DNA of 64,000 nt, taken from contig CAMDGF010000002.1 in the NCBI GenBank assembly GCA_945897555.1, forward strand, positions 70,926 to 134,925, written 5' to 3'. The position numbers and the translations under genes are program-made. Source of the DNA: Klebsiella pneumoniae (GTDB lineage Bacteria; Pseudomonadota; Gammaproteobacteria; Burkholderiales; UBA3065). Of this stretch, positions 2,241 to 54,456 are shown one piece after another. The notes under the pieces were generated by a model. The model made no database searches. It was not told the DNA's origin and worked only from the letters and a program-made list of their open reading frames with translations. Each line of letters opens with the position of its first letter. The stretch's first letter is position 1.

Positions 2241-2245
2241 GCCAG

Positions 2246-2512
2246 TCAGTCGCGGGCTGGCTGGCGGTCGGAGCGTCGGGTGTCGTTGCCGTCGATCGCT
2301 TGGCCATCGGGGCCGGTGATCAACGAGGGCTGCAGGGCCTCTCGCTGTCGGACCTGCTCCTGTTGCTGCCGCATCTGCTGTTCGCGTTGCTGCTGCTGGA
2401 TGATGGCTTGCTGCTGGATGGTGGCTTCGAGTGCGCGCATGGCCGCATCGCCGCCGGCATAGACCGGGAGCGCGATGGCAAGGCCCGAGAGCAGGAAAAC
2501 GGCGTGACGCAT
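2246..2512 (-). CDS. small secreted glutamine-rich protein (hypothetical)
   Basis: Internal ATG of ORF 2246..2686, preceded by AGGAGG 8 nt upstream. It has a signal-peptide-like N-terminus (MRHAVFLLSGLAIALPVYAGG). The mature part is Q-rich (QQQAIIQQQQREQQMRQQQEQVRQ). The longer ORF was trimmed because it runs through tRNA-Ser. Confidence 0.6.
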   Translation of the reverse strand: MRHAVFLLSGLAIALPVYAGGDAAMRALEATIQQQAIIQQQQREQQMRQQQEQVRQREALQPSLITGPDGQAIDGNDTRRSDRQPARD

Positions 2513-2532
2513 CTTGCCTACCTCCTGTGGGT

Positions 2533-2558
2533 GGCACTCGGCAAGGCGGGCCGGTGCC
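2533..2558. terminator. GC-rich hairpin between tRNA-Ser and the small secreted-protein gene; T-rich tail on the + strand
   Basis: GGCAC-T-CGGC/AAGGCGG/GCCG-GTGCC gives a 9 bp stem with one bulge. On the + strand it is followed by TCTTTGAGACTTCTTTGC. It could terminate cydAB read-through or tRNA-Ser transcription. Confidence 0.4.
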
Positions 2559-2587
2559 TCTTTGAGACTTCTTTGCAGCAGACGCTG

Positions 2588-2680
<93 letters not shown>

Positions 2681-2817
2681 ATGCATCGCGGATGCCGCGC
2701 GATTGTAGCAGAGCGTCGCCGGGCGCCCGCCCTATAGCCGCTACGCTGTCTGTTTGGGGGATGATTGCCCTCGCCTTGATCGGATGACATCCATCGAAGC
2801 AGCAAGGGTGGAGGGCA

Positions 2818-3231
2818 TCAGCTGTTCAACTTTTTCCAGGCAAGGCCGAGTTGGGCAAGCAACTGTGCCTCGCTGAATGGCTTGACGAGGTACCCCGATA
2901 CGCCGGCCTGCAAGGCAGCCATCACGTTATCGGTAGAGCGAACACCGGTCACCATGATGAAGGGCAGCTTGGCGAATTTTTCGTTGCTGCGGACTTCTTT
3001 GAGCATCTCAAGACCGGTGTACTGCGGCATCTCCCAGTCCGATAGAACAACATCGACGGGCTCCCCCAGAGCGACGCACTTTTCCAAGAGAGCGATGGCG
3101 GAGGGCACCGTGTCCGCATCCAGCACATTCTTGTAATCGAGCCTGGCCAGCAGGCTCCGGATCAGGATGCGCATCGATGCGACGTCATCGATGATCAAGA
3201 ATCGGGTGTTGGGTGGTGGGGTCATGCTCAT
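2818..3231 (-). CDS. CheY-like single-domain response regulator
   Basis: 137 aa with the receiver residues: LIIDD, VVLSDWEMP (phospho-Asp), FIMVTG and YLVKPF. It is the last gene of the chemosensory operon. Confidence 0.9.
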   Translation of the reverse strand: MSMTPPPNTRFLIIDDVASMRILIRSLLARLDYKNVLDADTVPSAIALLEKCVALGEPVDVVLSDWEMPQYTGLEMLKEVRSNEKFAKLPFIMVTGVRSTDNVMAALQAGVSGYLVKPFSEAQLLAQLGLAWKKLNS

Positions 3232-3254
3232 CGCGGGGCGTCCGGTTTGGCTGG

Positions 3255-4892
3255 TCAGGAGAAGCGTGTGAAAGCCGACTCGTCCATATCCCCATCGCCA
3301 GCGCCCGAAGGCGTACCGGTGGTCTGCTGCCCCGACGGCTGTGTACCGGCAGAGTCAGCTTTGCGTTCGCGCGACCCACGCGACGACTTGCCGAGGTTGA
3401 AGAATCCGACCAAGCCTTGCAGTTGAGTCGCCTGTGCGCTGAGTTCCTGCGATGTCTTGGTGAGCTCCTCAGATGCCGACGCCGACGCATGTGTCGACCG
3501 TGCGACCTCGTGGATGGCTTTGCCGATCTCGCCAAGCCCCAACGATTGCTCGCGCGAGGCAGCTGAGATCTCTTGAACCAGATCGGCAGTCTTGCGACTG
3601 GCGGGCACCATCTCGTCGAGCAGATGACCGGCTCGCTCCGCCATCTCGACGCTGGTGGCGGCGACCTCGCCAATGTCTCGTGCGGCGATGCTCGAACGTT
3701 CGGCCAGCTTGCGGACCTCGGCGGCGACCACCGCGAAGCCCTTGCCATGGTCGCCAGCGCGCGCTGCTTCAATGGCTGCATTCAGCGCCAGCAGATTGGT
3801 CTGATAGGCGATGTCGTCGATGATGCCGATCTTTGCCGCGATCTGGCGCATGGCCGTCACCGTCTCTCTCACGGCTCCGCCCCCATCTTCAGCATCTTTC
3901 GACGAGCGCGAGGCGATCTCGTCGGTGATTCTCGCGTTCTCGGCGTTCTGAGTCACAGTGGCGGTGATCTCCTCGACAGCCGAACTGGTCCTCTCCACCG
4001 AGATGGTCTGCTCGTTGGAGTTGTCGTTCAGCGATTGTGCCGCCGCTGAGAGCTGTTCCGCTGCAGAGGCTACCGAATCCGCTGCGCTCCTGACTTCGGA
4101 CATCACGTCCTGCAGCTTGGCAGCCATCGCCTTGAGGCCCGCCTCCATACTGGTCGAATCACCGGCTTCGACTTCGATGTCTTTGGCAACGGTCAACTTG
4201 CCCTGGGCGATCTGACGTGCCAGATCAGCCATCCATTCCAGTTGCGCTATCAAGCGCCGCTCGATCGTTAGACCGAAGGCCGTGATGATGGCGAACAAGA
4301 CCACGCCGACCACTGCCAACTCAATCAGCGCATTGGATTTGGTCTCCAGTGCCATTTGGGTGGCTTCCTCTGCGATCTGGACGTTGTGGGCGATGTGGTC
4401 ATCCAGATTCTTTGCAAGCTTCTCGGTGAGCGGGACCGCGGAAGTCACGATGTCGAGCGCTTCTTTTCGCTCGTTCGCCCGCGAATGGGCCAGCGCCTCA
4501 TCCACCATCTTTTCGTATTGCTGCAGCAATTCGACGGACGTGTTGAGGTATGCGCGGTCTTGGTCGTTGGCGATCAGCGTTTCATATTTTTTGAGCGATT
4601 TGAGAAGGGTTTCTCTGGAATCTTTGATCATCTTCTCGATCTCGACGGTCGAACGTTCGTCCGTGTTGAGAATCTGTCGGTAGATCTCGAAGCGGTATTG
4701 CCCAAAGCTGCTCGCTGCCTTGTCGAGGGCCACGATGCTTGGCTGGGTGTTGACCGCCACATGGTTGGCCGAGGCAAAGACGCTCTCCATCTGCCATACG
4801 CCCCAGATGCCTACGATGAGGATCGAAGCAGCCGCGGCGGCAATCAAGAGGTAGATCCTTTTGGCCGCGCTTATCGATGTGGTGATGCTCAT
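3255..4892 (-). CDS. methyl-accepting chemotaxis protein (two TM helices, four-helix-bundle-type periplasmic domain, HAMP, signalling domain)
   Basis: Carries the highly conserved hairpin-tip sequence [40 protein letters not shown]1 is [21 protein letters not shown] and TM2 is [27 protein letters not shown] sits 7 nt upstream of the ATG. Confidence 0.95.
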
Positions 4893-4958
4893 TGCGGTGC
4901 TCCTGAATAGGCTGAGTCTGGGGTTCTTAGCGTGCGGTTCGCAGATCGGGTGGGGGCA

Positions 4959-5549
4959 TCAAGCGGCCTCGAGGCCGGTCGGATCTGCGCTCGCGAACAT
5001 GGCGATCAGCGGTTCGAAATCGACAAGCACGATGACTTCGGAGTCCTCGACGTCAAAGGGATCCCGCGGGACACGACCGGTGCCCAAGAGGTAGGGCTCC
5101 GCAGAGATCGATCCGATGACTGGCGGGGGTGCGATCGTATCGGCAGCGATGTCCATGACCTCGTTCACCGAATCGACGATGAATCCGACGCGCCATTGTT
5201 CAGCGCTGCCGATGGCCTCAACGATCAGGATGCAGGTGCGCTTGCTGATGGCGCCGACTGGACGCTTGAGGCAGGAAGCCAGTTCTATCACTGGAACGGC
5301 CGTCTCGCGCAGATCGATGACGCCGCAAAACAAGGGCGGCAGACCGGGGACCGGGACCGGCGGCTGATACTCGATGATCTCGAGGATGGACAGGATGGGC
5401 ACTGCGAAACGCTCGGCACCCAACCTGAAGGTGAGGTATTGGCTGCCAGTGCCAAAATCGACGTCCTCAGCGTGTTCCACGGGGACGCCGGTGTCAGTGG
5501 CCCTTCTCAAGGATAGCCCTAGCCCCATACTTAAAGACGCTCCCCACAA
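4959..5549 (-). CDS. cheW: CheW-like coupling protein (start uncertain: TTG 5549 or ATG 5528)
   Basis: CheW-domain sequence YLTFRLGAERFAVPILSILEIIEY...GVIDLRETAVPVIEL. Confidence 0.85.
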   Translation of the reverse strand: MWGASLSMGLGLSLRRATDTGVPVEHAEDVDFGTGSQYLTFRLGAERFAVPILSILEIIEYQPPVPVPGLPPLFCGVIDLRETAVPVIELASCLKRPVGAISKRTCILIVEAIGSAEQWRVGFIVDSVNEVMDIAADTIAPPPVIGSISAEPYLLGTGRVPRDPFDVEDSEVIVLVDFEPLIAMFASADPTGLEAA

Positions 5550-5585
5550 CCCTGCGCTCGATCAGGACATGAGCGGGAGCCTAAC

Positions 5586-6692
5586 TTAAAGTTTAGAGAT
5601 CTCACCAGCGATTTCTTCGAGGTCGATCTCACGCTCCACTCCGCCCATTCGCATGGCTTCCTTCGGCATGCCGTAGACCACGCAGCTGTCTTCGTTCTGC
5701 CCGACGGTGCGGCCGCCGCTCTCGCGGATGCGCAGCAAGCCGGCTGCGCCGTCGTTGCCCATGCCGGTCATGATCACGCCGAACGAATTGGCTCCCGCAG
5801 CCAGTGCCACGGAGCGGAACATGAAATCCACCGAGGGTCGGTGGCGGTTGACGTAAGGCCCGTCGAGCACATCGACGTAGTAGCGCGTCTCGTCCCGTCT
5901 GACCGCGAGTTGCTTGCCGCCTCTGGCGATGATCGCCCGCCCACCCACCACGTCCATGCCGCTCACCGCTTCGACCACCTCGATGTCGCAGACATCATTG
6001 AGCCTTCTGGCGAAGGCTGCGGTGAAATGTTCGGGCATGTGCTGGACGATGACGAGACCGGGCACCGAGATGGGCAATCGGTGCAGCACCGACTCGAGCG
6101 CTTCGGTCCCGCCGGTCGAGGCGCCGATCGCCACGACCAGGCGAGACCCTGTGCCGATCGATTTGCGCACCGGCGCGGGCGGTACCAAGGGCCGATCGAC
6201 GATGTCTTTGGTATGGGTTGCAGGTGTCGACGTCGGTTGCAGGGGGGGCTGCGGCGTTGCGTCTGGCTGGCGGGGGCGGAAGCGCGCCTGCGATGCGGCC
6301 TTGACCTGGGTGACCAGATCCGCGCCGGCATCCTCAACGAAGTGGTTTCGTAGGTCTTTGGGTTTTCCGATGCATGCGATCGCTCCGACTCTGAGCGCTT
6401 CGAACGTCTCGGCGGCCCCTCGCTGCGACAGCGTCGAACAGATGACCACCGGCGTCGGCCGCTCGGCCATGATCTTGCGCAGGAAGGTCAGGCCATCCAT
6501 GCGCGGCATCTCGATGTCGAGGACTATCACATCGGGCCAATCACGCATCATCTTGTCAATGGCGAACAGGGGGTCCGGTGCCATGCCGATGACTTCGATG
6601 TCAGGGTCGCTGTCGAGGATCTTTTTCACCATCTCCCGCACAACGGCCGAATCATCAACGATGAAGGTCCGGATCTTCTTCATGAGCGCCAT
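5586..6692 (-). CDS. cheB: protein-glutamate methylesterase/deamidase CheB
   Basis: N-terminal receiver (FIVDDS, VIVLDIEMP), a P/T-rich linker, and a C-terminal methylesterase domain with VVAIGASTGGTEAL and VIVQHMPEHFT. Confidence 0.95.
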   Translation of the reverse strand: MALMKKIRTFIVDDSAVVREMVKKILDSDPDIEVIGMAPDPLFAIDKMMRDWPDVIVLDIEMPRMDGLTFLRKIMAERPTPVVICSTLSQRGAAETFEALRVGAIACIGKPKDLRNHFVEDAGADLVTQVKAASQARFRPRQPDATPQPPLQPTSTPATHTKDIVDRPLVPPAPVRKSIGTGSRLVVAIGASTGGTEALESVLHRLPISVPGLVIVQHMPEHFTAAFARRLNDVCDIEVVEAVSGMDVVGGRAIIARGGKQLAVRRDETRYYVDVLDGPYVNRHRPSVDFMFRSVALAAGANSFGVIMTGMGNDGAAGLLRIRESGGRTVGQNEDSCVVYGMPKEAMRMGGVEREIDLEEIAGEISKL

Positions 6693-7513
6693 CTGTAGAC
6701 CGAGGGCGCCACCAAGACGAGTTCGTCATCCATGTCGCGCAGGCTTTCGGAGTGGCTGATGATCAGCCAGCCGTCTGCATCGAGGTGATGGCACACCCTC
6801 CGCACGATCTCGTGCTTCTTCTCGGGTTTGAAATAGATGAGCATATTGCGCAAAAAAATGACGTTGAATTGACCGATGTCTGCGATCGGTGCTGCCAGGT
6901 TCATTCGCTCGAAGTTCACGCTCTGGCGCAACGAACGCTCAACGAGCAGCGTACCGTTGTATTGGCCAGTGCCGCGCAGACAGTAATCCCGCAGATACTG
7001 CTTCGGCATCATGTCGAGACGATCCATGCGGTAGTGGCCCGCTCGCGCCGCCTCGACTACGGATTGACTGATGTCGGTGCCAAAGATTTTCCAATCGAAG
7101 GCCTTGCCGAGCCGATCGGCGAGCACCATGGCGACGCTGTAGGCCTCTTCCCCGGTAGAGCAGGCGGCACTCCATACCCGCAGGGGTTTGCGGCTACGCA
7201 GGAACTCCGGCGCGATGCGGTCACGGAGCAGTTCGAAGTGCGCCGGTTCGCGAAAGAAATAAGTCTCGTTGGTCGTGAGCAGATCGACGAAACGCTGGCG
7301 TTCGGCAAGGTCCTTGCCTGATTCGAGAATCGCGCGGTAGGAACGGAAACTGTCCAGCTGCAGTTCGTTCAGACGCTTGCCAAGACGCGCCATGATCAGG
7401 GATCGACGGCTTTCGTCAAGATAGATGCCCGCCATCTCGCTGATCATTCGCTGGAAGGCCAGAAAGTCTCTTTCCGAAAGATTCTTCTCCCCGACAGCGG
7501 CCCGAATCAGCAC
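6680..7513 (-). CDS. cheR: chemotaxis protein methyltransferase CheR
   Basis: Contains TNETYFFREPAHFE and the SAM-binding sequence LRVWSAACSTGEEAYS. It overlaps cheB by 13 nt. Confidence 0.94.
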   Translation of the reverse strand: MLIRAAVGEKNLSERDFLAFQRMISEMAGIYLDESRRSLIMARLGKRLNELQLDSFRSYRAILESGKDLAERQRFVDLLTTNETYFFREPAHFELLRDRIAPEFLRSRKPLRVWSAACSTGEEAYSVAMVLADRLGKAFDWKIFGTDISQSVVEAARAGHYRMDRLDMMPKQYLRDYCLRGTGQYNGTLLVERSLRQSVNFERMNLAAPIADIGQFNVIFLRNMLIYFKPEKKHEIVRRVCHHLDADGWLIISHSESLRDMDDELVLVAPSVYRWRS

Positions 7514-8040
7514 TCACCCCCATTACCAAGGCTGCTCAGCGGCGCATTGACGCTCGCGAGTGATGCCATCTCATCGATCGACAGCACTCTTTCGATGTTC
7601 ACCAAGATAATGAATGAGCTGCCCAGTCGCGCCATGCCGGCGATGAACTCAGCGCGCATGCAAGCGCCGAATGCGGGTGCTGGTTCGATCTCGGAGCGAC
7701 CCACGTCGATGACTTCGCTGACACTGTCGACGACCATACCGACGTCTGCGTTCCCGCCCTCAAAGCCGATCTCAACCATGACGATGCAGGTGCGCTTTTG
7801 CGGTGGGGTGGGTTCTTTGCCGAGTCGCAGGGCCAGGTTGATGACGGGCACGACATGGCCGCGCAGGTTGATGACGCCTTCGATGAAGCGCGGCATCTGG
7901 GGGACGCTGGTCAGTTGTTTGTACTCGACGATCTCTTTGACGCACAGGATGTTGAGGCCGAAGGACTCCTCATTCAGGCTGAAAGTGAGGTACTGGCCCT
8001 GTTCTGCCAGAAATTCGCGGGCCTCTGCCTTCCGGTTCAC
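7507..8040 (-). CDS. cheW: CheW coupling protein
   Basis: 177 aa with QYLTFSLNEESFGLNILCVKEIVEY...GVINLRGHVVPVINL. The ATGA overlap with the cheA stop indicates translational coupling. Confidence 0.93.
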   Translation of the reverse strand: MNRKAEAREFLAEQGQYLTFSLNEESFGLNILCVKEIVEYKQLTSVPQMPRFIEGVINLRGHVVPVINLALRLGKEPTPPQKRTCIVMVEIGFEGGNADVGMVVDSVSEVIDVGRSEIEPAPAFGACMRAEFIAGMARLGSSFIILVNIERVLSIDEMASLASVNAPLSSLGNGGEC

Positions 8041-10244
8041 AGGGCCGACCTTTCGACCCGACCTGATTCGTACTGCTCGATACGGGCCGCGAGGTCGATG
8101 AGGGCCGGAACGTCCAGGATGAGCGCGACTTCGCCACTGCCGAGGATGGTCGAGCCCGATATGCCCCTGAGCGTCTCAAACAGGGGCCCAAGGGGTTTGA
8201 TGACGGTCTGGAAATCCCCGACCAGATCGTCCACCACCAATCCGGCTACACGGCCCCCGTAGTTGACCACGACGATGTTCTCGCGAAGTTCGGCTGCGTC
8301 CTCTTTTTCGAACACTTCTCGCAGGCGCACGAAAGGCAGCACTTTGCCGCGAAGATTGAGATAGTTACGGCCCGACGCGGTCTCGATGTCGTCGCGACGC
8401 AGTTCAAGGCACTCGACGATCATGTTGAGGGGGATGACGAACGCATCTCCGCCGACGTTCACCACAAAGCCATCGATGATGGCGAGGGTCAGCGGCAGGC
8501 GGATCCGGGTGATGGTGCCCACCCCGACCTCGCTTTCGATGTCGATGGTGCCGCGCAGGCTCAGGATGTTCTGTTTGACAACATCCATCCCGACACCGCG
8601 CCCGGAGATGTTGGTGATGGTGTCGGCAGTGGAAAAGCCGGGCTCGAAGATCAAGTTGTTGATTTCGCGAGAGGTCAACGCAGCGTTGGCGGTGATCAGT
8701 CCCCGCTCTACCGCCTTGGCACGGATCCTTTCGGGGTTGAGGCCGCCGCCATCGTCAGCGACCTCGATGACGATGCTGCCAGACTCGTGGTAAGCATGCA
8801 GTTGCAGGCGGCCGATCGGCGACTTGCCCGCGGCGATGCGCTTCTCACGCGTCTCCAGACCGTGGTCGAGCGAATTGCGGACCAGGTGGGTGAGCGGGTC
8901 GGAGATCTTCTCCACCACCGATTTATCAAGCTCGGTCTCGGCGCCGCTGATGTGCAACTCCACATCCTTGCCAAGTTCTGCACTGAGGTCGCGCACCACG
9001 CGCTGAAAGCGCGTGAAGGTGGCGCCGATCTGCACCATGCGCAGATTGAGGGCGGTGTCCCGCAGTGATTCGACGAGGCCGGTCACGTTCGACATGGCTT
9101 CACGCAATTCGGCGTTGCGGAGGCGTTGGGCGATGAGTGAACTGTAGGCACCCGCGATGACCAGCTCGCCGATCAGGTTGATGAGCTGATCGAGTTTGTC
9201 CGCCTCGACGCGCAAGAAGCGCGACTCTCCCGACCGGCCTTCTGTGGCTTTTGCACCCGGTGCACCCTTCTCCGTGCGTTCCGCGGCCACGGCGGCGTTG
9301 TCAGGCGAGGCCTCGACGGAGGGTGTCGATGCCGGTTCTTCGATCGGCCCGGCGGGTGCGGCCGTTGCGGTGGCGACCATCGGGTCAGGTTCTGCAACAG
9401 CTTGCTCGACAGCCGCTGCCTTGCCAGCGGGCGGAAAGCGTCGAGCCTCCGTGAGCCAGGCGGTAGAGCAGGGCTCGACAGTGACTTGGCACTGGTCTGC
9501 GATAAAGTCGAACACGCTGCGGATGGAGGCTTCGTCGACGCCACCGGACATCACCAGTTCCGTGGCGATGTAGCAGGTCTCGGGGTCGAAGTTGTCGGGC
9601 GAGCCCGGCTCGACGAGTTCGCTGCGGATCCAGTTCACCGTCCCTTTGGTCGCGAGAAAACGCATGAATGCGAGGGGGTCCATGCCCTCGCGCATCACGT
9701 TGGGGCCAAAGTGCACGCGCACGTGCCAGCCGTCCAACTCATACGCAGCGCTTTCGTCGCCGCTGGGTGCAGCACTGTCGGTGTTGTCGGTTGCAACGAG
9801 CGCATCGCTTGCGGTCGCAGCTTTGGCAGCGGCACGACGCGCCACCGCCTCGTCGCCGCCGACGAAAGACATCAGCGCCTCGATCAAGGCTTTTTCGTGT
9901 TCGGCCTCTTCGTTGCTGCGGGTGCCGGTGCCCAAGCCTTGAGCCACCAGCAAGCCCATGTGATCGGTGCAGCGTAGGATCAGCGTCACGAGGTCTGGGG
10001 TGACGGTGAGCTTTCCCTTGCGGGCATCGTCCATCACGCTTTCGACGTGATGGGTGAAAGCGACCACCCCCTCAAGTCCGAACATCCCGGCGGTGCCCTT
10101 GATCGTATGGGCGGCGCGGAAGATGGCGTTGATGAGGTCGCTGTTGCTGCCGTTGGCTTCGATCTCGAGCAGGCTGCGCTCCATCTCCGCGAGCATCTCG
10201 CGGGATTCCTCCTCGAAAGCGGCGAGTGCGGGATCTGTGCTCAT
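8037..10244 (-). CDS. cheA: chemotaxis histidine kinase CheA
   Basis: Hpt site AAHTIKGTAGMFG, a P2-like segment, and a dimerisation region. The kinase core has HLVRNSLDHGLE, EVADDGGGL and GRGVGMDVV. A C-terminal CheW-like domain is present. Confidence 0.96.
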   Translation of the reverse strand: MSTDPALAAFEEESREMLAEMERSLLEIEANGSNSDLINAIFRAAHTIKGTAGMFGLEGVVAFTHHVESVMDDARKGKLTVTPDLVTLILRCTDHMGLLVAQGLGTGTRSNEEAEHEKALIEALMSFVGGDEAVARRAAAKAATASDALVATDNTDSAAPSGDESAAYELDGWHVRVHFGPNVMREGMDPLAFMRFLATKGTVNWIRSELVEPGSPDNFDPETCYIATELVMSGGVDEASIRSVFDFIADQCQVTVEPCSTAWLTEARRFPPAGKAAAVEQAVAEPDPMVATATAAPAGPIEEPASTPSVEASPDNAAVAAERTEKGAPGAKATEGRSGESRFLRVEADKLDQLINLIGELVIAGAYSSLIAQRLRNAELREAMSNVTGLVESLRDTALNLRMVQIGATFTRFQRVVRDLSAELGKDVELHISGAETELDKSVVEKISDPLTHLVRNSLDHGLETREKRIAAGKSPIGRLQLHAYHESGSIVIEVADDGGGLNPERIRAKAVERGLITANAALTSREINNLIFEPGFSTADTITNISGRGVGMDVVKQNILSLRGTIDIESEVGVGTITRIRLPLTLAIIDGFVVNVGGDAFVIPLNMIVECLELRRDDIETASGRNYLNLRGKVLPFVRLREVFEKEDAAELRENIVVVNYGGRVAGLVVDDLVGDFQTVIKPLGPLFETLRGISGSTILGSGEVALILDVPALIDLAARIEQYESGRVERSAL

Positions 10245-10537
10245 CCAGCCTCTTCGAGCAAGAATCCGAGACCCATGGTCACCAGCGCATCTGCGATGGC
10301 CGGCTTGGATCCGGTCAGGCGCACGCTGCGATCCTGTTGTTCTGAAAAGGTCTTGGCCGCGAGCAACAGTTGGACGCCGGCGCCATCGAACTCCTCGACC
10401 TCTTCGAGACGGATCAAGATGTCGCGACCTTCAGCCAAAGCAGTCAGCAAGTCTGATCGCAGCTCGCTCACGCCATAGATGTTGACGAGTGTCGGCAGCT
10501 TCCAGAGTGTTTGTTCAGGCCCGGTTTCGACCGCCAT
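10241..10537 (-). CDS. STAS-domain protein (anti-sigma-antagonist fold), chemosensory-cluster associated
   Basis: 98 aa. The segment ILIRLEEVEEFDGAGVQLLLAA aligns to the SpoIIAA ...FMDSSGLGVIL segment. The gene sits 1 nt after the cheY stop and overlaps the cheA start by 4 nt. Confidence 0.75.
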   Translation of the reverse strand: MAVETGPEQTLWKLPTLVNIYGVSELRSDLLTALAEGRDILIRLEEVEEFDGAGVQLLLAAKTFSEQQDRSVRLTGSKPAIADALVTMGLGFLLEEAG

Positions 10538-10538
10538 T

Positions 10539-10913
10539 TCAAGCCCTCGAGCAGGTCAGTAAGGCGACGGCTGAAAGCAGCGCATCGGGCTTGAAAGGCT
10601 TCACCATCCAGACGTTAACGCCCCGACGCTTTCCTTCCATCCTAACCTCATCCGAAGATTCTGTGGTGATCATGGCGATCGGCGTAAAACGGTAGCCGGG
10701 GCTCGCGCGGACGTGGCTGACGAATGTGAGTCCATCCATGATCGGCATGTTCACATCGCTGACGATGAAATCGATGCGCCGCCCATCGAGCAACTTCACG
10801 GCGGTCTCACCATCGTCGGCTTCGAGAACCTCATAGCCGGCGCGGCTGAGGGCGATGCGGATCACTGCTCGCATCGAGCTGGAGTCGTCGACAACGAGGA
10901 TGGTCAGTGCCAT
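10539..10913 (-). CDS. cheY: CheY response regulator
   Basis: 124 aa with LVVDDSSSMR, FIVSDVNMPIMDG, AMITTES and WMVKPF. Confidence 0.93.
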   Translation of the reverse strand: MALTILVVDDSSSMRAVIRIALSRAGYEVLEADDGETAVKLLDGRRIDFIVSDVNMPIMDGLTFVSHVRASPGYRFTPIAMITTESSDEVRMEGKRRGVNVWMVKPFKPDALLSAVALLTCSRA

Positions 10914-45443: not shown

Positions 45444-46034
45444 ATGGCTGAGCGCAAACCCGCTGCGGCGTCGGGGGGCGGTGCCTCTCGCGCGCCGGGT
45501 CTCGGCGCCGGCATCCTCATCGGCGTGCTGCTTGGCATCGGGCTGGCGCTGGCTGTGGCGATCTGGCTCAACGTGCGCGGCTCTCCCTTTAGCGAGCGCG
45601 AGGTGCCAGCGGAGTTGCCGGCCCTGACGGTGCCTCCCCCCGTCGGGCCTGCTCAGGCGCCGCCGGCCGTCGCGAAACCCGCAGATGCAGCGGAAGACGA
45701 GCCTGGCAATGGCCAGCGCTTTGATTTCTACGAGATCCTGCCTGGCACCGAAGCGACCGCCGTAGCGCGGCCGCGCATCAACCTGCCGGTGGCGCTCTAT
45801 CTGCAAGCCGGCGCCTTCCGCAGCCCGACCGATGCCGACGACCGCAAGGCACAGCTCAATCTGCTCGGCCAGACTGCGGTGGTCCAGCGTGTGCAGGTCG
45901 GTGAAAGCCTGCTTCACCGCATCCGCGTCGGCCCTTTTGCAACGCAAGCGGAACTCGAGCAGGTCCGCGCCTTTCTCAGCGAGAACGGTATCGACAGCAT
46001 ACCCATGCGACCCGAGACCACCGCCAGCCCATGA
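45444..46034 (+). CDS. SPOR-domain cell-division/peptidoglycan-binding protein
   Basis: N-terminal TM helix GILIGVLLGIGLALAVAIWL, a P/A-rich linker, and a C-terminal SPOR-like domain (LYLQAGAFRSPTDADDRKAQL...HRIRVGPFATQAELEQVRAFL). Confidence 0.85.
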   Translation: MAERKPAAASGGGASRAPGLGAGILIGVLLGIGLALAVAIWLNVRGSPFSEREVPAELPALTVPPPVGPAQAPPAVAKPADAAEDEPGNGQRFDFYEILPGTEATAVARPRINLPVALYLQAGAFRSPTDADDRKAQLNLLGQTAVVQRVQVGESLLHRIRVGPFATQAELEQVRAFLSENGIDSIPMRPETTASP

Positions 46035-46672
46035 GGATCCCGATGACCTTCGCAGACCGTGCCGCCGCCGTGATGGCATTCCTGATGTCCCTGTTCTTCG
46101 CCGGAGCCGCCACGGCCAACCCGGTCGAGGGCAAGGATTTCGCCACCGTACCGCTGCCGCAGGCCACTGCAGCGGGCAAGATCGAGGTGACCGAGTTCTT
46201 CTGGTATGGCTGCCCGCATTGCTTCACGCTCGATCCCAAGCTGGAAGCGTGGGTCGCCAAGCTGCCCAAGGATGTACAGTTCAAGCGGGTGCCGGCGGTG
46301 CTGGCGGCGCACTGGCAGCCGATGGCCAAATCGTTCTACGCGCTCGAAGCCACCGGCGTCGACCTGCACGCCAAGATGTTCAGCGCCATGCACGTGGAGA
46401 ACATCAACCTGAGCGACGAGCAGACCTTTCTGCAGTGGGTTGGCAAGCAAGGCGCCGACAGCCGCAAGATCGGTGAGGCCTACCGCTCCTTTGGCGTCAA
46501 CAGCAAGTTGCAGGCGGCGCGCCAGCTCAACGTCAATTACGGCCTGACCAGCGTGCCGACGCTGGTCATCGCGGGCAAGTACCGCACCTCCCCGTCGATG
46601 GCTGGCAGCGCTGAGCAGATGTTTCAGGTGGCCGATCACCTCATCGATCAGGTACGCAGATCGTCGCGTTGA
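46031..46672 (+). CDS. dsbA: thiol:disulfide interchange protein DsbA
   Basis: Signal peptide and the active site FFWYGCPHCFTLDP. Confidence 0.94.
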   Translation: MRIPMTFADRAAAVMAFLMSLFFAGAATANPVEGKDFATVPLPQATAAGKIEVTEFFWYGCPHCFTLDPKLEAWVAKLPKDVQFKRVPAVLAAHWQPMAKSFYALEATGVDLHAKMFSAMHVENINLSDEQTFLQWVGKQGADSRKIGEAYRSFGVNSKLQAARQLNVNYGLTSVPTLVIAGKYRTSPSMAGSAEQMFQVADHLIDQVRRSSR

Positions 46673-46733: not shown

Positions 46734-47459
46734 TCAGGAGGCGGCCGTCCAGTCGCGCAGGCGGGCCCGAAGGCGCGCCACGGCTTGGCTGTGCAGCTGG
46801 CAGACGCGCGATTCCGACACACCGAGCACTTCGCCGATCTCTTTGAGGTTGAGCTCCTGCTCGTAGTACAAGCCCATGATGAGGCGTTCACGTTCGGGCA
46901 AGTTGTCGATCGCCTCGACCAGGTGCTCACGAAAACGCGAGTCTTCGAGGACGCTGGCCGGCGAGAGTTGCTCGTCGGCCGCATAGCCATCGAGAAAATG
47001 GGCGTCGTCGGCGTCCTGAAAATCCTCGTAGTAGAGCAGTTGGGCACCCCGGCCGTCGGACAGCTGCTGCTGGTACTGGTCCAGCGAGAGTTCAAGGGCG
47101 TCGGCCAGTTCGCGCTCCGTTGGCGCTCTTCCGAGGCTCTGTTCGAGGCGACTATTCGCTGCCTCGATCTGGCGCATGTTGCGGCGCACGCTCCGTGGCA
47201 GCCAGTCGGCCTGACGCAGCTCATCGAGGATGGCGCCACGGATGCGCTGCGCGGCATAGGTCTCGAACTGTGCACCCTGACCATCATCGAAATGGTCGAT
47301 GGCGTCCATCAGCCCGATGAGGCCGACCTGGATCAGATCGTCGACCTGCACGCTCGAGGGCAGTCGAGCCATAAAGTGGTAGGCGATGCGTTTGACCAGT
47401 TGCGCGTGCTCCATCACCAGCCGTTCGGTGGTGCCTGCGGACACGGCGGGCGTATTCAT
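46734..47459 (-). CDS. fliA: flagellar sigma-28 factor FliA
   Basis: Contains DDLIQVGLIGLMDAIDHFD, FETYAAQRIRGAILDELR and LKEIGEVLGVSESRVCQLHSQAVARLR. It was trimmed to the ATG that overlaps the upstream stop (ATGA). Confidence 0.94.
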   Translation of the reverse strand: MNTPAVSAGTTERLVMEHAQLVKRIAYHFMARLPSSVQVDDLIQVGLIGLMDAIDHFDDGQGAQFETYAAQRIRGAILDELRQADWLPRSVRRNMRQIEAANSRLEQSLGRAPTERELADALELSLDQYQQQLSDGRGAQLLYYEDFQDADDAHFLDGYAADEQLSPASVLEDSRFREHLVEAIDNLPERERLIMGLYYEQELNLKEIGEVLGVSESRVCQLHSQAVARLRARLRDWTAAS

Positions 47460-48187
47460 GCGCGCACCGCCTCGGCAGTCTGCGCACGGCGGAGCCGCTG
47501 CAGCCATTCAGACCAGTCGTCGGTGCGTGGGGCCATACTGTCGAGCCGCTCCACAGCGAGCCGCAGCGCGCGTACGGTGGGCGAGCGCGGGTGAGCCTCG
47601 ACCGCGCGCAGACCGGCGCGAGCCGATCGCAGCAAGACCGCGTCGTCGGGTATGCAACCCAGAGCCTCCGGGACGCAACCCAGAAAGCGGCGCGCGGTGT
47701 TTCGCAGATTGTCCATCGGTAGGGTTGCGGCGGCCTGTTCGGTACGGGTGAACATGACGTGACAACTGGTGCGGCCGGTGACTGCCGACAGCGATTTGAG
47801 CTGTACATAGGCGCGGGTGAGGTGTTCAGGCCGAGCCGAGGCCACCATGACGAACTCGTCAAAGCCGAGGCAAGGCCAAGGCAGTTCGACCGGGTCGAGC
47901 AAGCCCAGCACGACATCGACGATGGGCAGGGCCGCCAACCATGCGCCGAGCTCGAGCCCTGCGGCGGGCAGCGTGGTGCCGGCTGGACGGCCTTGTCCGG
48001 CTGGAGTCCCGCCACGCAGATCGAGCACCAGCACCGACCGGCTGCGCTGTTGCCAGGCATCGGCCATGGCATCGGCAAGCAGTTCGAGGTCGAGCTCGCG
48101 CGGGCCCAGCACACCCACACAGCGGACCGAGCGCACGTTCACCATGCGCCGCAAACCCTCCGCTTGATCCCGCACAGCAGCGTTCAT
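47456..48187 (-). CDS. flhG: FlhG/FleN (MinD/ParA-family) homologue with degenerate nucleotide-binding motifs
   Basis: It sits between flhF and fliA. The N-terminal DQAEGLRRM and the segment DEFVMVASARPEHLTRAYVQLKSL align to FleN. The Walker A position reads VGVLGPRELDLELL instead of xGKGGVGKT. Confidence 0.8.
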   Translation of the reverse strand: MNAAVRDQAEGLRRMVNVRSVRCVGVLGPRELDLELLADAMADAWQQRSRSVLVLDLRGGTPAGQGRPAGTTLPAAGLELGAWLAALPIVDVVLGLLDPVELPWPCLGFDEFVMVASARPEHLTRAYVQLKSLSAVTGRTSCHVMFTRTEQAAATLPMDNLRNTARRFLGCVPEALGCIPDDAVLLRSARAGLRAVEAHPRSPTVRALRLAVERLDSMAPRTDDWSEWLQRLRRAQTAEAVRA

Positions 48188-49437
48188 GTCGCGTTCAGCG
48201 CGTTGATGTGCGTTTCCAGCGCTGCGGTGTAGAGCGCCAATTCGTCGCGTTCGCGGCCCTCGAAAGGCGGCAGCCGGCCAACGCTGCGGAAGGCGCGGTC
48301 GGCGAGATAGAGCGGATTGGGGCGATGCAGATCCTCGGGTACGCGCTGGCCATTGCTCAGGTAGTGCACCGGGAGTTGGTGCCGCACCACCACATCGAGT
48401 ACTTCACCGAGCCGCACCGCCTCATCGATCTTGGTCAGGATGCAGCCATAAAGGCCACCCTCACCGTAGCGTCGGATGACGTCCTCGAGCGTGCTCAGCT
48501 GCGTGTTGGCAGCGATGACGAGGATGCGGCGGACCCCATGACCCGCACCGGTGAGCAGTCGCAGCTGGTCGGCCAGCCTTTGGTCGCGTTGCCCCATGCC
48601 GATGGTGTCGACCAGCACCAGCCGCCGACGCCGGATGTCCTCCAGCGTGACGTCGAGTTCGGCACCATCACGTGCAGCAAAGACGGGAACTCCGAGCAGC
48701 TTGGCGTAGATGCGCAATTGATCCTCGGCGCCGACGCGGTAGCTGTCGGTGGTCACGAAGGCCAACTGCTGTGAGCCGTGGCGCATGGCACAACGTGCGC
48801 CGATCTTCGCCACCGTGGTGGTCTTGCCGACGCCCGTCGGCCCGACCAGCGCAAAGGTGCCGGACTCCTCGACCAGATCCGATTCGACCACCCGTCCCTG
48901 CAACTCGCGATGCAAGCGTAGCCTCAATGCGGCACAGATCTCGGTGGGCGACAGCCCCGGCTGCATCTCGTCGAGCCAGCCCCGCCCCAGCCCGGGGCTG
49001 AAACCCGCGGCCAGCCACTGCCGCAAGGCTTCGGCACGGGAGGGGTCTTGCCGCGCCACTTCGCCCCAGGCGAAGCCCGACAGCTGGCTCTCGACCAGCT
49101 GCTTGAGCGAGCGCATCTCGGCGAGCAGGTCGCTCACCGTGATGCCAGTCAGCGCGTCCGCATCGGCCAGTGAGCCTGCATCGGGCGACGGCCGGGGGCG
49201 CGTCGCGCCCGCCCGTGCATTGCGGAACACCTGCGCCTCGTGACGCGGAGCTACGGCTGGCGGCATCGTGCTGATCACCGGCATGTTCCCGTCGAAGTCG
49301 GCTTCGGCCACCGCCATCACCTCGATCTCGCCATCCACCGTGCGGTTGGAGAGGATGATCGCGTCGGCGCCCAGCGTATCTCGCACCAGGCGCAGGGCCT
49401 CGCGCGTACTGGCGGCGACGAACTTGCGGACGATCAT
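48184..49437 (-). CDS. flhF: flagellar biosynthesis SRP-type GTPase FlhF
   Basis: B-domain N-terminus MIVRKFVAASTREALRLVRDTLGADAIILSNR, plus G1 LVGPTGVGKTTT, DTIGMGQRD and LTKIDEA. Confidence 0.94.
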   Translation of the reverse strand: MIVRKFVAASTREALRLVRDTLGADAIILSNRTVDGEIEVMAVAEADFDGNMPVISTMPPAVAPRHEAQVFRNARAGATRPRPSPDAGSLADADALTGITVSDLLAEMRSLKQLVESQLSGFAWGEVARQDPSRAEALRQWLAAGFSPGLGRGWLDEMQPGLSPTEICAALRLRLHRELQGRVVESDLVEESGTFALVGPTGVGKTTTVAKIGARCAMRHGSQQLAFVTTDSYRVGAEDQLRIYAKLLGVPVFAARDGAELDVTLEDIRRRRLVLVDTIGMGQRDQRLADQLRLLTGAGHGVRRILVIAANTQLSTLEDVIRRYGEGGLYGCILTKIDEAVRLGEVLDVVVRHQLPVHYLSNGQRVPEDLHRPNPLYLADRAFRSVGRLPPFEGRERDELALYTAALETHINALNAT

Positions 49438-51482
49438 GCTTGGGCGCCAAGGGTGGCAACGATGCGGACCGTCCTATTGTCGGGGATTTCGTTGTGCGAG
49501 AGCACCCGCAATTGCGGCAGGGAGCGGCGCAAAAAACGCGACAGCAGCTGGCGCAGCGGTGCCGGCACCAGCAGGACGGGCGTCTGGCCGGCCGCCTCGC
49601 GTTCTTGCGCGAGCTGGCTGGCCCGTCGCAGCAGCCCCTCGGCGAGACCTGGTTCGAGGCCGGCCTCCTCGTCGCCGGTGCGGTTGCCGGCCGCCTGCAT
49701 CAGGAGTTGTTCGAGGCCTGGATCGAGTGCCAGCACGCCGATCTCGCTTGCGCCCGGCGCGAGGTCGTGGACGATGGCCCGACGCAAGCCGATGCGGATG
49801 CGCTCCACCAGCTCAGCAGGGCTTGAATCCGGCCGGGCAGTCTCGCTGAGGATGCCGACGATCGAGCGCATGTCGCGCAATGGCACGCCCTCGTCGAGCA
49901 GCCCTTGCAGCACTTGCCGCAACATGCCGAGGCTGATGGTCTTGGGCACCAGATCCTCGACCAGCTTCGGCGCCGTCTTGGTGAGGTGTTCGAGCAGGCC
50001 CTGCACCTCCTCGCGGCCGAGCAACTCGGAGGCGTGCCGCTGGATGACGTTGGACAGGTGTGTGGCCACCACGGTGCTCGCGTCGACCACGGTGTAGCCG
50101 AGCAACTGCGCCTGCTCGCGTGCCTCGGCCGTGACCCAGGTGGCAGGTAGGCCGAAGCTGGGGTCGGTGGTGGCGGTGCCCTCGATCGGGCCAAGGACCT
50201 TGCCGGGGTTGATGGCCATATGCTGGCCGACCTGGATCTCGCCGCTGGCGATGTCGACACCCTTGAGCAGGATGCGATAGCCGTTGGGCCGCAACTGCAG
50301 GTTGTCGCGGATATGCACAGCTGGGATGAGAAAGCCGAGTTCACCGGCGAACTTCTTGCGCAGCGCACGGATCCGCCGCAACAGCTCGCCATCTTGCGCG
50401 GAGTCGACCATCGGGATCAGCCGGTAGCCCACCTCCAGCGCCAGCATGTCGATGGGCGCCACGTCATCCCAGGTCACTTCGTGACTGTCGGTGCCCGCTG
50501 CAGCGGCTTCGCCCTCACCGTCGGCCTCGGCAGACCCCGTTGGTCGTGATTCGACCGCCCGTGCAAGGCCGGCAAGTCCGGCCGCCATCAACAAGAAGAC
50601 GACATTGGGCATGCCGGGGATGAGCCCGAGGGCAGCCAGGATGCCCGCTGTGGTGTAGAGCACGCGTGGGTTCTGCAGCATCTGCCCGGACACCTCGTCG
50701 CCAAGGTCGCGATCGGAGCCTACGCGCGCCACCACGATGCCAGACGCGGTGCTGATGATGAGTGCGGGGATCTGTGCCACTAGACCGTCGCCGATGGTCA
50801 GCAGCGTGTAATTCTGGGCGGCTTGGGCAAAAGAGAGGTCGTGCTGGGTCATGCCGATGATCAGCCCGCCGATGATATTGATGATCATGATGAGGATGCC
50901 GGCCACTGCATCGCCACGCACGAACTTGCTGGCACCGTCCATCGAACCGAAGAAGTCGGCCTCGCGCGCGATCTCTTGCCGGCGCATGCGCGCGTCGGCC
51001 TCGCCGATGAGGCCGCTGTTGAGGTCGGCATCGATCGCCATCTGCTTGCCAGGCATGGCATCGAGAGTGAAGCGTGCGCTCACTTCGGCGATGCGTCCGG
51101 CGCCTTTGGTGATGACGACGAAGTTGATGATGACGAGGATGACGAAGACGATGATGCCCACCGCGTAGTTGCCGCCGACGACGAACTGGCCGAAGGCCTC
51201 GATCACACGGCCTGCAGCGTCGGCGCCGGTGTGGCCCTCCATCAGCACGACCCGCGTCGAAGCCACGTTGAGCGACAGCCGCAGCAGTGCAGTCAGCAGC
51301 AACAGGGTCGGAAACACCGAGAAGTCCAGTGGCTTGAGCGTGTAGAGCGCTACCAGCAGGATGATCATCGCCAGCGCGATGTTGAAGGTGAAGAAGACGT
51401 CGAGTGCGACCGGCGGCAGCGGCAACACCATCATCGCGAGGATGAGGATGACCACCAGCGGCATGGCGATGCGCGAGTTCAT
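49434..51482 (-). CDS. flhA: flagellar type III export gate protein FlhA
   Basis: 682 aa with the N-terminal TM region LILAMMVLPLPP, FVRGDAVAGILI and a large cytoplasmic C-domain. ATGA overlaps occur at both ends. Confidence 0.96.
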   Translation of the reverse strand: MNSRIAMPLVVILILAMMVLPLPPVALDVFFTFNIALAMIILLVALYTLKPLDFSVFPTLLLLTALLRLSLNVASTRVVLMEGHTGADAAGRVIEAFGQFVVGGNYAVGIIVFVILVIINFVVITKGAGRIAEVSARFTLDAMPGKQMAIDADLNSGLIGEADARMRRQEIAREADFFGSMDGASKFVRGDAVAGILIMIINIIGGLIIGMTQHDLSFAQAAQNYTLLTIGDGLVAQIPALIISTASGIVVARVGSDRDLGDEVSGQMLQNPRVLYTTAGILAALGLIPGMPNVVFLLMAAGLAGLARAVESRPTGSAEADGEGEAAAAGTDSHEVTWDDVAPIDMLALEVGYRLIPMVDSAQDGELLRRIRALRKKFAGELGFLIPAVHIRDNLQLRPNGYRILLKGVDIASGEIQVGQHMAINPGKVLGPIEGTATTDPSFGLPATWVTAEAREQAQLLGYTVVDASTVVATHLSNVIQRHASELLGREEVQGLLEHLTKTAPKLVEDLVPKTISLGMLRQVLQGLLDEGVPLRDMRSIVGILSETARPDSSPAELVERIRIGLRRAIVHDLAPGASEIGVLALDPGLEQLLMQAAGNRTGDEEAGLEPGLAEGLLRRASQLAQEREAAGQTPVLLVPAPLRQLLSRFLRRSLPQLRVLSHNEIPDNRTVRIVATLGAQA

Positions 51483-52732
51483 CTGTCGATCGCTCCGACG
51501 CCACTCACCGTCGGCCCGGTACCGCGGTCGGCCGCGCGCATGCGCGTGGCCTCAACATCACCGCGCAGGCTTCTGCGCTGGGCGACTCCCGGGCTGACCG
51601 CATCGGCGTCCGCTTCGAGCGGGTCCATGCCTGGTGGAACTGCGATGTCTGGTGTTGGCAGCAGGGCATTGTGGTCCTGTTCGAGAGCGTAGACCCAGGC
51701 CAAGACCTGAGCCACCGCTGTGTAGAGCTCGGCCGGGATCTCCTGCTCGAGTTCGCCGTGCGCGTAGAGGGCGCGTGCAAGGGGTGGCGCTTCCAGCGTC
51801 GGGATCTGGTTCTCTGCGGCGATCTCGCGGATGCGTGTGGCGATGAGGTCGATGCCTTTGGCAAGGATACGCGGCGCAGACATCTGGTTGCCGTCGTAGC
51901 GCAGAGCGACGGCGTAGTGCGCCGGGTTGGTCACCACCACGGTGGCCTTGGGCACATTGGCCATCATGCGACGGCGAGCTGCGGCTCGCTGCAACTGTCG
52001 GATGCGCGCCTTGATCTGCGGGTCGCCATCCTGCTCGCGCGCCTCTCGCCGCACCTCCTCCTTGGTCATGCGCAGCTGCTTGCGGAAATTCCAGATCTGG
52101 AACGGCACATCGATGGCAGCCACCAGAGCCAGCGCGCCAACCACCCAGATCATGCCCTCGCCGATGCGTCGCATGCCCGAGGTCACGGCGTTCACCAGAT
52201 CGCCGTCGGCCAGCTGCAGCCACTCCTCGAGGTGGGTAGACAAGAACCAGAACGCCACCGCACCAAGGAAGACGGTCTTGATCACCGATTTGAGCAGTTC
52301 GACGAGACCGTTGACCGAAAAGATGCGGGCGATGCCGGAGAACGGGTTGAGGCGTGACGCCTGTGGCACCAAGGGCTCATTGCTGAGGACCCAGCCGGAG
52401 ATCAGCAAGGAGGCGCCCACCAGGGCTACGATCATGGCCCCCATCAGCGGCAGCAGCGCGATCAGCGCATCGACCGGAAGGTCGAACAGACGCTTCAGCG
52501 CAGCTTCGCTATCGAAGGCTTCGCGCCGGTCGAAGCGCAGGCTGCGCGACAGCACGTCGACCATCGATGCCGACAGGTTGCCGCCGGTGAACAGCAGTAC
52601 GGCGCCACCGGCCAGCAGACCAGAAAACGTAGCAAGCTCCCGCGAGCGCGCGACCTGCCCCCGCTCCCGGGCGTCCTGCAGCCGTTTGGGTGTTGGGTCC
52701 TCGGTCTTTTCGAGGTCGCTTTCCTCAGCCAC
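51479..52732 (-). CDS. flhB: flagellar type III export switch protein FlhB
   Basis: N-terminus MAEESDLEKTEDPTPKRLQDARERGQV (GTG start). The autocleavage region reads VVVTNPAHYAVALRY. The C-terminal tail is about 40 aa longer than in the enterobacterial protein (from memory). Confidence 0.95.
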   Translation of the reverse strand: MAEESDLEKTEDPTPKRLQDARERGQVARSRELATFSGLLAGGAVLLFTGGNLSASMVDVLSRSLRFDRREAFDSEAALKRLFDLPVDALIALLPLMGAMIVALVGASLLISGWVLSNEPLVPQASRLNPFSGIARIFSVNGLVELLKSVIKTVFLGAVAFWFLSTHLEEWLQLADGDLVNAVTSGMRRIGEGMIWVVGALALVAAIDVPFQIWNFRKQLRMTKEEVRREAREQDGDPQIKARIRQLQRAAARRRMMANVPKATVVVTNPAHYAVALRYDGNQMSAPRILAKGIDLIATRIREIAAENQIPTLEAPPLARALYAHGELEQEIPAELYTAVAQVLAWVYALEQDHNALLPTPDIAVPPGMDPLEADADAVSPGVAQRRSLRGDVEATRMRAADRGTGPTVSGVGAIDR

Positions 52733-52742
52733 TGGGCCTCAC

Positions 52743-54456
<1,714 letters not shown>

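Follow-up and report, generated by a model that had tools for sequence, protein, structure and literature searches.

A five-gene flagellar operon, flhB-flhA-flhF-X-fliA, occupies positions 46734-52732 of a 64,000-nucleotide stretch of contig CAMDGF010000002.1 (assembly GCA_945897555.1), which is referred to here as the window. Its fourth gene, X, is an FlhG ortholog by position, enhancer helix, and fold that lacks the ATPase motifs by which the FlhG family is defined; it does not amount to a new type of system. ATP binding leads to dimerization of FlhG and to its localization at the membrane or pole (PMC7226244), and ATP-driven dimerization with membrane or pole binding is how current models account for flagellar counting (PMC12826062; PMC7226244). 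Reviews from 2020 (PMC7226244) and 2025 (PMC12826062) treat FlhG as a MinD-like ATPase throughout. The N-terminal 23-residue peptide of FlhG is enough to stimulate the GTPase FlhF (PMC7226244), and the glutamine of this enhancer helix is co-catalytic for the FlhF homodimer (PMC12826062). A selected FlhG that has no ATP site raises directly the question of what the ATPase cycle is for.

The operon and its flhG ortholog

X is the open reading frame (ORF) at 47456-48187 on the reverse strand, which begins with ATG and encodes 243 amino acids (Table 1). A preliminary description, made from the sequence alone, had placed it in the flhF-flhG-fliA position with ATGA overlaps at both ends. The position is borne out by the matches of the flanking genes to FlhF (TIGR03499) and FliA (NF005413) models, and the overlaps are present not only at flhF/X and X/fliA but also at flhB/flhA and flhA/flhF. 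Since ATGA occurs at all four junctions, the five genes constitute one translationally coupled operon. The G1, G3, and G4 motifs of FlhF are intact (GPTGVGKT at 199, DTIGMGQRD at 277, and TKID at 335), and the enhancer helix of X presumably acts on FlhF.

Table 1. Features of the operon and of X in window coordinates, with the Walker A region of flhG in betaproteobacterial relatives (window coordinates do not apply to the relatives)
Feature	Position	Strand	Basis or remark
flhB	51479..52732	-	First of five operon genes; 74-82% identity to same-position PF01312 Bac_export_2 gene in family loci
flhA	49434..51482	-	83-92% identity to same-position PF00771 FHIPEP genes in family loci
flhF	48184..49437	-	TIGR03499 FlhF 234 bits (cut-off 174); PF00448 SRP54 GTPase domain E = 8e-36
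X, flhG ortholog without ATP-binding motifs (pseudo-ATPase FlhG)	47456..48187	-	Position, profile, fold, dN/dS
Enhancer-helix motif DQAEGLRRM (residues 7-15, Gln8)	48143..48169	-	Family-wide invariance
Former deviant Walker A loop, GPRELDLE (residues 28-35)	48083..48106	-	Opposite GKGGVGKT by hhalign and HMMER
Former switch I, LDLR (residues 55-58)	48014..48025	-	Alignment
Variable linker (residues 57-82)	47942..48019	-	Stands in for the ~50-residue post-switch I module of FleN/FlhG
Switch II/Walker B equivalent, DVVLGLLDP (residues 91-99)	47891..47917	-	Alignments disagree
Best-conserved MinD-fold core, DEFVMVASARPEHLTRAYVQLKSL (residues 110-133)	47789..47860	-	Aligns with FleN QEVLLVVCDEPTSITDAYALIKLL
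C-terminal amphipathic helix, DWSEWLQRLRRA (residues 224-235)	47483..47518	-	AlphaFold2 helix 225-242
fliA (sigma-28)	46734..47459	-	Last gene of operon; NF005413 305 bits
fur	52743-53177	-	Operon flank, directly upstream of flhB
dsbA	46031-46672	convergent	Operon flank beside fliA
Burkholderia cenocepacia, B. lata, B. anthina flhG	match ~6001-6819		GGPAGVGCT; loci L063, L054, L064, L070, L077
Paraburkholderia flhG			GGSVGVGCS
Caballeronia flhG			GGLGGTGNT (L062)
Pandoraea flhG			GSAPEAGQT (L057)
Undibacterium flhG			SVLSEDEKS (L004)
Herbaspirillum flhG			SVLPDDEKG (L026)
Janthinobacterium flhG			SATPxxDK[SG]
Gallionella flhG			AGKPGVGCT/AGKPGVGRT (L043/L056)
Sulfuricella flhG			SGRTGVGKT

Searches of X against Pfam returned no family even at E ≤ 1, and NCBIfam gave noise only; X falls below the gathering thresholds of the Pfam ParA, CbiA, and AAA_31 models and of the NCBIfam MinD and FlhG models, on which canonical and partly degenerate orthologs do score. 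As a single sequence, X matches Pseudomonas aeruginosa FleN weakly (E = 7e-4, residues 89-218). The profile of its family, searched against the PDB, found FleN (5J1J) at E = 5e-25, Geobacillus FlhG (4RZ2/3) at E = 1e-14, and MinD (1HYQ) at E = 4e-7. A family-only alignment, which removes the influence of one canonical-like row, was compared with an alignment of canonical FlhGs in hhalign, and residues 1-235 were paired with 1-284 at 99.5% probability (E = 3e-22). The AlphaFold2 model of X (mean predicted local distance difference test [pLDDT] score, 80; predicted template modeling [TM] score, 0.80) has the alternating strand-helix order of the MinD fold, and Foldseek matched it first to FleN (5jvf) and FlhG (4rz2), at E = 1e-11 to 1e-9 and TM scores of ~0.66-0.70, and then to MinD, NifH, and ParA. 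Because the profile comparison, the predicted model, and the PDB matches agree, we call X an FlhG ortholog. It is full length and fold preserving, its orthology is both vertical and positional, and it is neither a fragment nor an unrelated protein with a borrowed N-terminus.

The best match in both sequence and structure is P. aeruginosa FleN (5J1J/5JVF/8P53), the C-terminal helix of which aligns with that of X. Unlike X, FleN has its motifs intact; it binds ATP and acts as an anti-activator of FleQ. No FleQ-type gene was seen near the operon. The FlhG of Geobacillus thermodenitrificans and Bacillus subtilis (YlxH; 4RZ2/4RZ3) shares with X the DQAxxLR helix, the MinD fold, a C-terminal amphipathic helix, and a place adjoining flhF. 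Canonical FlhG, however, has GKGGVGKT, a DxD switch I, and a DTxxG switch II and alternates between a membrane-bound ATP dimer and a monomer in the cytosol, whereas X has lost the first two of these motifs (Walker A and switch I) and is ~50 residues shorter than the Geobacillus and Bacillus proteins. MinD (1HYQ) represents the fold superfamily of X but has no enhancer helix and is strictly ATP dependent. X is not a MinD of division-site selection: it lies in a flagellar operon without minC or minE as neighbors, carries the enhancer helix, and has no ATPase motifs.

A database search recovered ~25 clusters of orthologs (59-85% identity), which derive without exception from metagenomes or metagenome-assembled genomes (MAGs) and are labeled Burkholderiales, Betaproteobacteria, or Rhodocyclaceae. 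It also recovered one full-length ParA-domain protein at 28% identity. An HMMER scan run exhaustively over 1.84 billion representatives found a sister cluster (P0027; 243 amino acids, 47% identity) with the same architecture and synteny. The gene order fur-flhB-flhA-flhF-X-fliA-dsbA-SPOR-argS-DUF2237 is identical in all family loci read, the sister cluster included, with dnaE next after DUF2237 in three of the four, and the 4-nucleotide overlap of flhF and X is kept. Pairwise Nei-Gojobori ratios of nonsynonymous to synonymous substitution rates (dN/dS) are 0.14-0.27 for X overall, with dS near saturation. By region, the ratio is 0.09-0.35 for residues 16-56, which include the former Walker A loop, and 0.05-0.22 for residues 83-120; the linker (residues 57-82), at 0.38-0.80 and once >1, is the sole near-neutral part. 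X is a maintained gene under purifying selection in an uncultured freshwater clade of Burkholderiales/Rhodocyclaceae-like bacteria.

The missing Pfam and NCBIfam matches could also be expected of a decaying remnant, with X on its way to becoming a pseudogene as its lineages lose motility. No other gene of the operon evolves as fast as X, another point in favor of decay, yet the rate of X is proportional to those of FlhB and FlhF; as X is fastest at all distances, no evolutionary burst on the stem lineage is claimed. One sister-cluster contig, L086 (3506-4858 / 4846-10732), is 99.6-99.8% identical to a second, L087, and is without L087 positions 1354-4845. Lost with these 3,492 bp are the entire flhA gene, the 3′ portion of flhB, and the greater part of flhF; there is a 13-bp overlap at the junction, and the FlhG-like gene and fliA are intact and identical. 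L086 is either a natural deletion variant, with flagellar loss in progress, or an assembly artifact; this 3.5-kb deletion, too, would fit a remnant. Against decay, the reading frame is intact in all full-length members (240-247 amino acids) across >25 lineages and the 47%-identical sister cluster, 70 alignment columns do not vary even when sequences of only 45% identity are included, the overlaps are preserved, and the window has intact copies of flhB, flhA, and flhF. Together with the overall dN/dS of 0.14-0.27 at near-saturated dS, these observations make a remnant extremely improbable, and on dN/dS and conservation, we rejected X as a pseudogene.

The former nucleotide site and the enhancer helix

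The preliminary description had proposed an FlhG/FleN homolog in which the MinD-type P-loop is lost but the FlhF-activating N-terminus is retained, and this proposal is supported by position, profile, fold, motif alignment, conservation, and purifying selection alike. Each peptide that it quoted is found in the translation: DQAEGLRRM at residues 7-15, VRCVGVLGPRELDLELL at 21-37, LDLR(GG) at 55-60, DEFVMVASARPEHLTRAYVQLKSL at 110-133, and DWSEWLQRLRRA at 224-235.

The loss of the deviant Walker A motif is confirmed by profile-profile alignment, which sets GPRELDLE against GKGGVGKT. With the family aligned to canonical FlhGs in hhalign, the signature Lys is matched by Pro29, the P-loop Lys by the invariant Leu34, and the Thr by Glu35. 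The loop contains no Lys and a single Gly, and it places three acidic residues (Glu31, Asp33, and Glu35) at the presumptive phosphate site. The pattern xKGGxGK[ST] does not occur in any family member. The β1-loop-α1 element, composed of the former Walker A loop and its flanks, is modeled by AlphaFold2 at a pLDDT of ~90. A sequencing or frameshift error that masks a P-loop was considered and rejected. With canonical FlhGs as queries, tblastn detected neither a hidden P-loop in another frame nor a second MinD/FlhG paralog in the 64-kb window, its sole match being the C-terminal half of X in its own frame, and the same strings recur in >25 independent metagenome or MAG assemblies. An intact Walker A emerging after correction of a sequencing or alignment error, which the preliminary description had named among the outcomes that would undo its proposal, is excluded by these two results.

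The reading of LDLRGG in place of LDADxG likewise holds: in L-[DE]-x-R58, the first Asp of switch I is kept as Asp or Glu, and the second, catalytic Asp is replaced by an invariant Arg58. The loss in X exceeds the P-loop, as a module of ~50 residues after switch I is also gone, a deletion that the preliminary description missed. Gaps here amount to at least 39 residues relative to FleN (HMMER) and ~50 relative to canonical FlhGs (hhalign), and the linker that remains is poorly conserved and modeled at a pLDDT of 53-67. For switch II, the two alignments give different registers: HMMER pairs the Walker B Asp with Gly95, and hhalign pairs D91-VVL-G95 with D-TAA-G. AlphaFold2 predicts a strand at residues 92-96, which favors the HMMER register, and neither D91 nor G95 varies within the family.

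Three invariant arginines (R22, R48, and R58) and one nearly invariant (R30) lie near the former site, and together with a possible DxxxG-like D91..G95, they could be taken to mean that X still binds a nucleotide or another phosphorylated ligand noncanonically and has kept some ligand-controlled switch. There is a precedent in McdA, a ParA-type carboxysome positioning protein that lacks the signature lysine and is nevertheless a highly active ATPase by way of Lys151 (PMC8684754). Like X, McdA is a ParA/MinD-family member that departs from the deviant Walker A. Unlike X, it keeps GK[ST] and the catalytic residues, including the catalytic Asp, and supplies its signature Lys from position 151 (PMC8684754), whereas in X the whole GxxGxGK[ST] loop is gone and switch I deleted. 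Leu34 at the catalytic Lys and the three acidic residues at the phosphate site also speak against such a ligand, as does the fact that the sole invariant Lys of the family, K131, is conserved in canonical FleN too. We regard retained ligand binding as very improbable.

At the N-terminus, the match of DQAEGLRRM to the FlhF-stimulating DQAxxLR helix, as first described, holds across the family: neither the family nor the sister cluster shows any variation at D7, Q8, A9, G11, L12, R13, and R14, and the spacing from helix to strand β1 is as in canonical FlhG (hhalign). AlphaFold2 gives helix 3-15 a low pLDDT and detaches it from the body. In the model, it looks like a flexible appendage, as would be expected of an FlhF-docking peptide. 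Met15 was considered as an alternative main start (229 amino acids) and rejected, because residues 1-14 are conserved in the protein sequence and the ATGA overlap with flhF is conserved as well. The corresponding position is Leu in P0016 and P0025, so an internal start is not conserved, and the GGAGG found 11 nucleotides upstream of Met15 arises from A-E-G codons.

The later segments still align, as the preliminary description had stated, with DEFVMVASARPEHLTRAYVQLKSL of X paired with QEVLLVVCDEPTSITDAYALIKLL of FleN. Its suggestion of an amphipathic C-terminal helix needs a qualification. The helix is amphipathic, with a hydrophobic moment of 0.73, but not exceptionally so, given that the moment of the 12-residue segment 224-235 (0.67) is matched by 6% of shuffles. 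In its motif, DWSxWLQRL, residues W225, W228, L229, R231, and L232 are invariant; it aligns with LEFFVERL of FleN, whose C-terminal helix is its homolog, and corresponds in position to the membrane-targeting helix of FlhG. Residues that are invariant and specific to the family include C23, W45, W83, P105, C106, C142, C171, W225, and W228.

Walker A decay among betaproteobacterial relatives

Outside the family, KGGxGK[ST] was found in only 6 of the 150 nearest representatives of clusters at 50% identity. A GK[ST] without the signature Lys occurs in 29, the P-loop Lys is lost in 68, and no G-K-[ST] at all is present in 42. The second switch I Asp is replaced in ~95% of the 150 (the motif reads DEN, DEH, DAR, DAC, and others). 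The enhancer helix, in comparison, is nearly universal: DQAxxLR is kept in 166 of 175 retrieved relatives, and in GTDB species genomes, 77 of 80 loci have a gene encoding it between flhF and fliA. KGGxGK[ST] is retained at 11 of 77 genome loci.

Degenerate flhG orthologs occur in named, cultured members of Burkholderia and the other genera of Table 1 and, more widely, in Oxalobacteraceae, Gallionellaceae, and Methylophilaceae. They resemble X in their flhF-X-fliA position, in their invariant DQAEGLRR, and in their loss of the signature Lys (usually of the P-loop Lys as well) and of the second switch I Asp. They differ from X in their length (270-315 amino acids), in retaining the post-switch I module and a recognizable LVDxxxG/switch II, and, for most, in scoring weakly on Pfam ParA/CbiA. 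The canonical Walker A is found in gammaproteobacterial relatives (Thioalkalivibrio and several MAGs) and in Acidithiobacillus. Pfam scores fall stepwise from 77 bits for canonical proteins through Sulfuricella (54), Gallionella (38), and B. cenocepacia (28) to none for Herbaspirillum and the X family. In the Burkholderia motif GGPAGVGCT, Cys occupies the P-loop Lys position and Pro that of the signature Lys, and switch I reads DER; no discussion of this degenerate FlhG was found in the Burkholderia FlhF papers that we read.

Three states of Walker A occur in genomes labeled Sulfuricella (L030, L013, and L005/L017/L025/L046): GGKGGVGKS (accompanied by a switch I that is already DGQ), SGKRGAGKT, and SGRTGVGKT. 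Their motifs suggest that close relatives can be used to trace the first steps of decay, in which the catalytic Asp and the signature Lys are lost. In a neighbor-joining tree, the X family is nested in a betaproteobacterial clade beside the most degenerate groups; the tree has no support values and may contain rate artifacts. Taken as a sketch only, it suggests a stepwise decay from the canonical motif to GK[ST] only, then to loss of the Lys, and finally to nothing. The X family shares ≤30% identity with all other forms, and its post-switch I deletion is unique. To judge by these motifs, X is the extreme of a class-wide decay of Walker A and switch I and not an isolated oddity, a wider trend that the preliminary description had not seen.

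Neither a P-loop-less FlhG nor a degenerate Burkholderia FlhG is described in the full-text literature that we searched, subscription-only papers being outside its reach, and the decay of the FlhG ATPase motifs in Betaproteobacteria is apparently undescribed so far. Given that McdA is active without the signature Lys, the betaproteobacterial forms that keep only GK[ST] may still bind ATP; the X family cannot take the McdA route.

A probable ATP-independent FlhG

We favor, with a probability of roughly 0.6, the reading that X is an ATP-independent FlhG, that is, a constitutive activator of the FlhF GTPase built on a static MinD-fold scaffold, with its level set by translational coupling to flhF. 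A nucleotide-independent FlhG, as the preliminary description predicted, appears to be the most reasonable inference from the sequence comparisons. X would no longer bind or hydrolyze ATP and so could not run the ATP-dependent cycle of canonical FlhG, with its monomer-dimer and membrane transitions. Gln8 of the enhancer helix would insert into the FlhF homodimer and stimulate GTP hydrolysis, which would shorten the activity of FlhF at the pole and limit flagellar number. The MinD-fold body would act as a static scaffold that provides stability and nucleotide-independent contacts, for example, with the C-ring proteins FliM/FliN. Control would be exerted by dosage, through the coupling to flhF, instead of by an ATP switch.

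Several observations weigh against this reading. The absence of canonical motifs is not strict proof of the absence of nucleotide binding, and in the hhalign register, switch II may be partly retained as D91..G95. In Vibrio alginolyticus, Walker A mutants of FlhG lose function and are hyperflagellated (PMC7226244), and in Vibrio, the Q9A mutant of the helix regains a normal flagellar number at the wild-type expression level (bioRxiv 10.1101/2022.03.19.484964). In this best-studied system, ATP binding outweighs the helix, and an ATP-free FlhG must work differently. The retention of X on L086, without flhA and most of flhF, could reflect a function independent of FlhF or a very recent flagellar loss. 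Finally, only 64 kb of the genome is visible, and a canonical ATP-dependent FlhG, or a moonlighting MinD, might be encoded elsewhere in it and reduce X to an accessory role or to a remnant that is partly redundant; in Escherichia coli, MinD is noted to be able to affect the expression of flagellar genes (PMC12826062). We consider this very improbable, as the window has no second paralog, the helix-bearing gene between flhF and fliA is the degenerate one in 77 of 80 related genomes, and the strong purifying selection speaks against redundancy.

The constraint on X is as strong over the body and the former P-loop region as over the helix (dN/dS of 0.05-0.35). This constraint, together with the many residues that are invariant only in this family, implies that the body of X does something specific. 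One possibility is that the scaffold has been repurposed as a nucleotide-independent adaptor or regulator, which might deliver FliM/FliN to the nascent C-ring or modulate FliA or another protein, with the helix serving mainly as a tether to FlhF. FlhG binds the C-ring proteins FliM/FliY in a nucleotide-independent manner (PMC7226244), X is coupled to fliA by ATGA, and the sister-lineage contig L086 has kept both X and fliA. Two points make repurposing unlikely: the most conserved element in the clade is the DQAxxLR helix, the known activity of which is stimulation of FlhF, and the neighborhood in the family loci shows neither a new domain nor a new partner gene. The ATP-independent activator of FlhF remains the reading that we prefer for X.

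For the class as a whole, we hold a more tentative view, at slightly less than even odds, that the FlhF-FlhG switch may run without a MinD-type cycle of ATP binding, dimerization, and membrane attachment, with FlhG as a pseudo-enzyme, in a large part of the Betaproteobacteria (Burkholderiaceae, Oxalobacteraceae, Gallionellaceae, Methylophilaceae, and the X lineage). The question of the purpose of the ATPase cycle is posed equally by this class, which includes the tractable genera Burkholderia, Herbaspirillum, and Janthinobacterium and in which decayed ATP motifs accompany an invariant FlhF-activating helix. The degenerate FlhGs are natural separation-of-function alleles, and they lead to the prediction that stimulation of the FlhF GTPase on a static scaffold is enough for numerical control in some clades. 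If this is true, the X family would be a natural minimal FlhG, with its P-loop erased and its switch I module deleted, and the FlhF-activating helix would be the only universally retained active element of FlhG. This arrangement would also be the natural reciprocal of the Vibrio result, with the two halves of FlhG as separable modules that are weighted differently by clade; such a difference in balance is what makes the X lineage informative.

These proteins also present an annotation problem, in that misplaced starts remove the key helix and the names given are misleading. Many gene callers start relatives of X at Met15 (229-amino-acid versions, P0177-P0186; window 48143-48145) and cut off the DQAEGLRR helix. 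NCBI names include “hypothetical protein,” “MinD/ParA family protein,” and “MinD/ParA family ATP-binding protein,” in the last of which “ATP-binding” is probably a wrong label.

In every family locus (L081, L083, L085, and L087), bamE and dapB precede fur, which lies directly upstream of flhB. A consensus scan for promoters and terminators across the operon gave no internal signal exceeding that of shuffled sequences. As is to be expected at 66% G+C, the real genes are overlain by many long spurious ORFs, which lie in other frames or on the other strand (for example, 47284-48120 on the reverse strand and 47941-48774 on the forward strand); genes here are to be chosen by codon-position GC or homology and not by ORF length.

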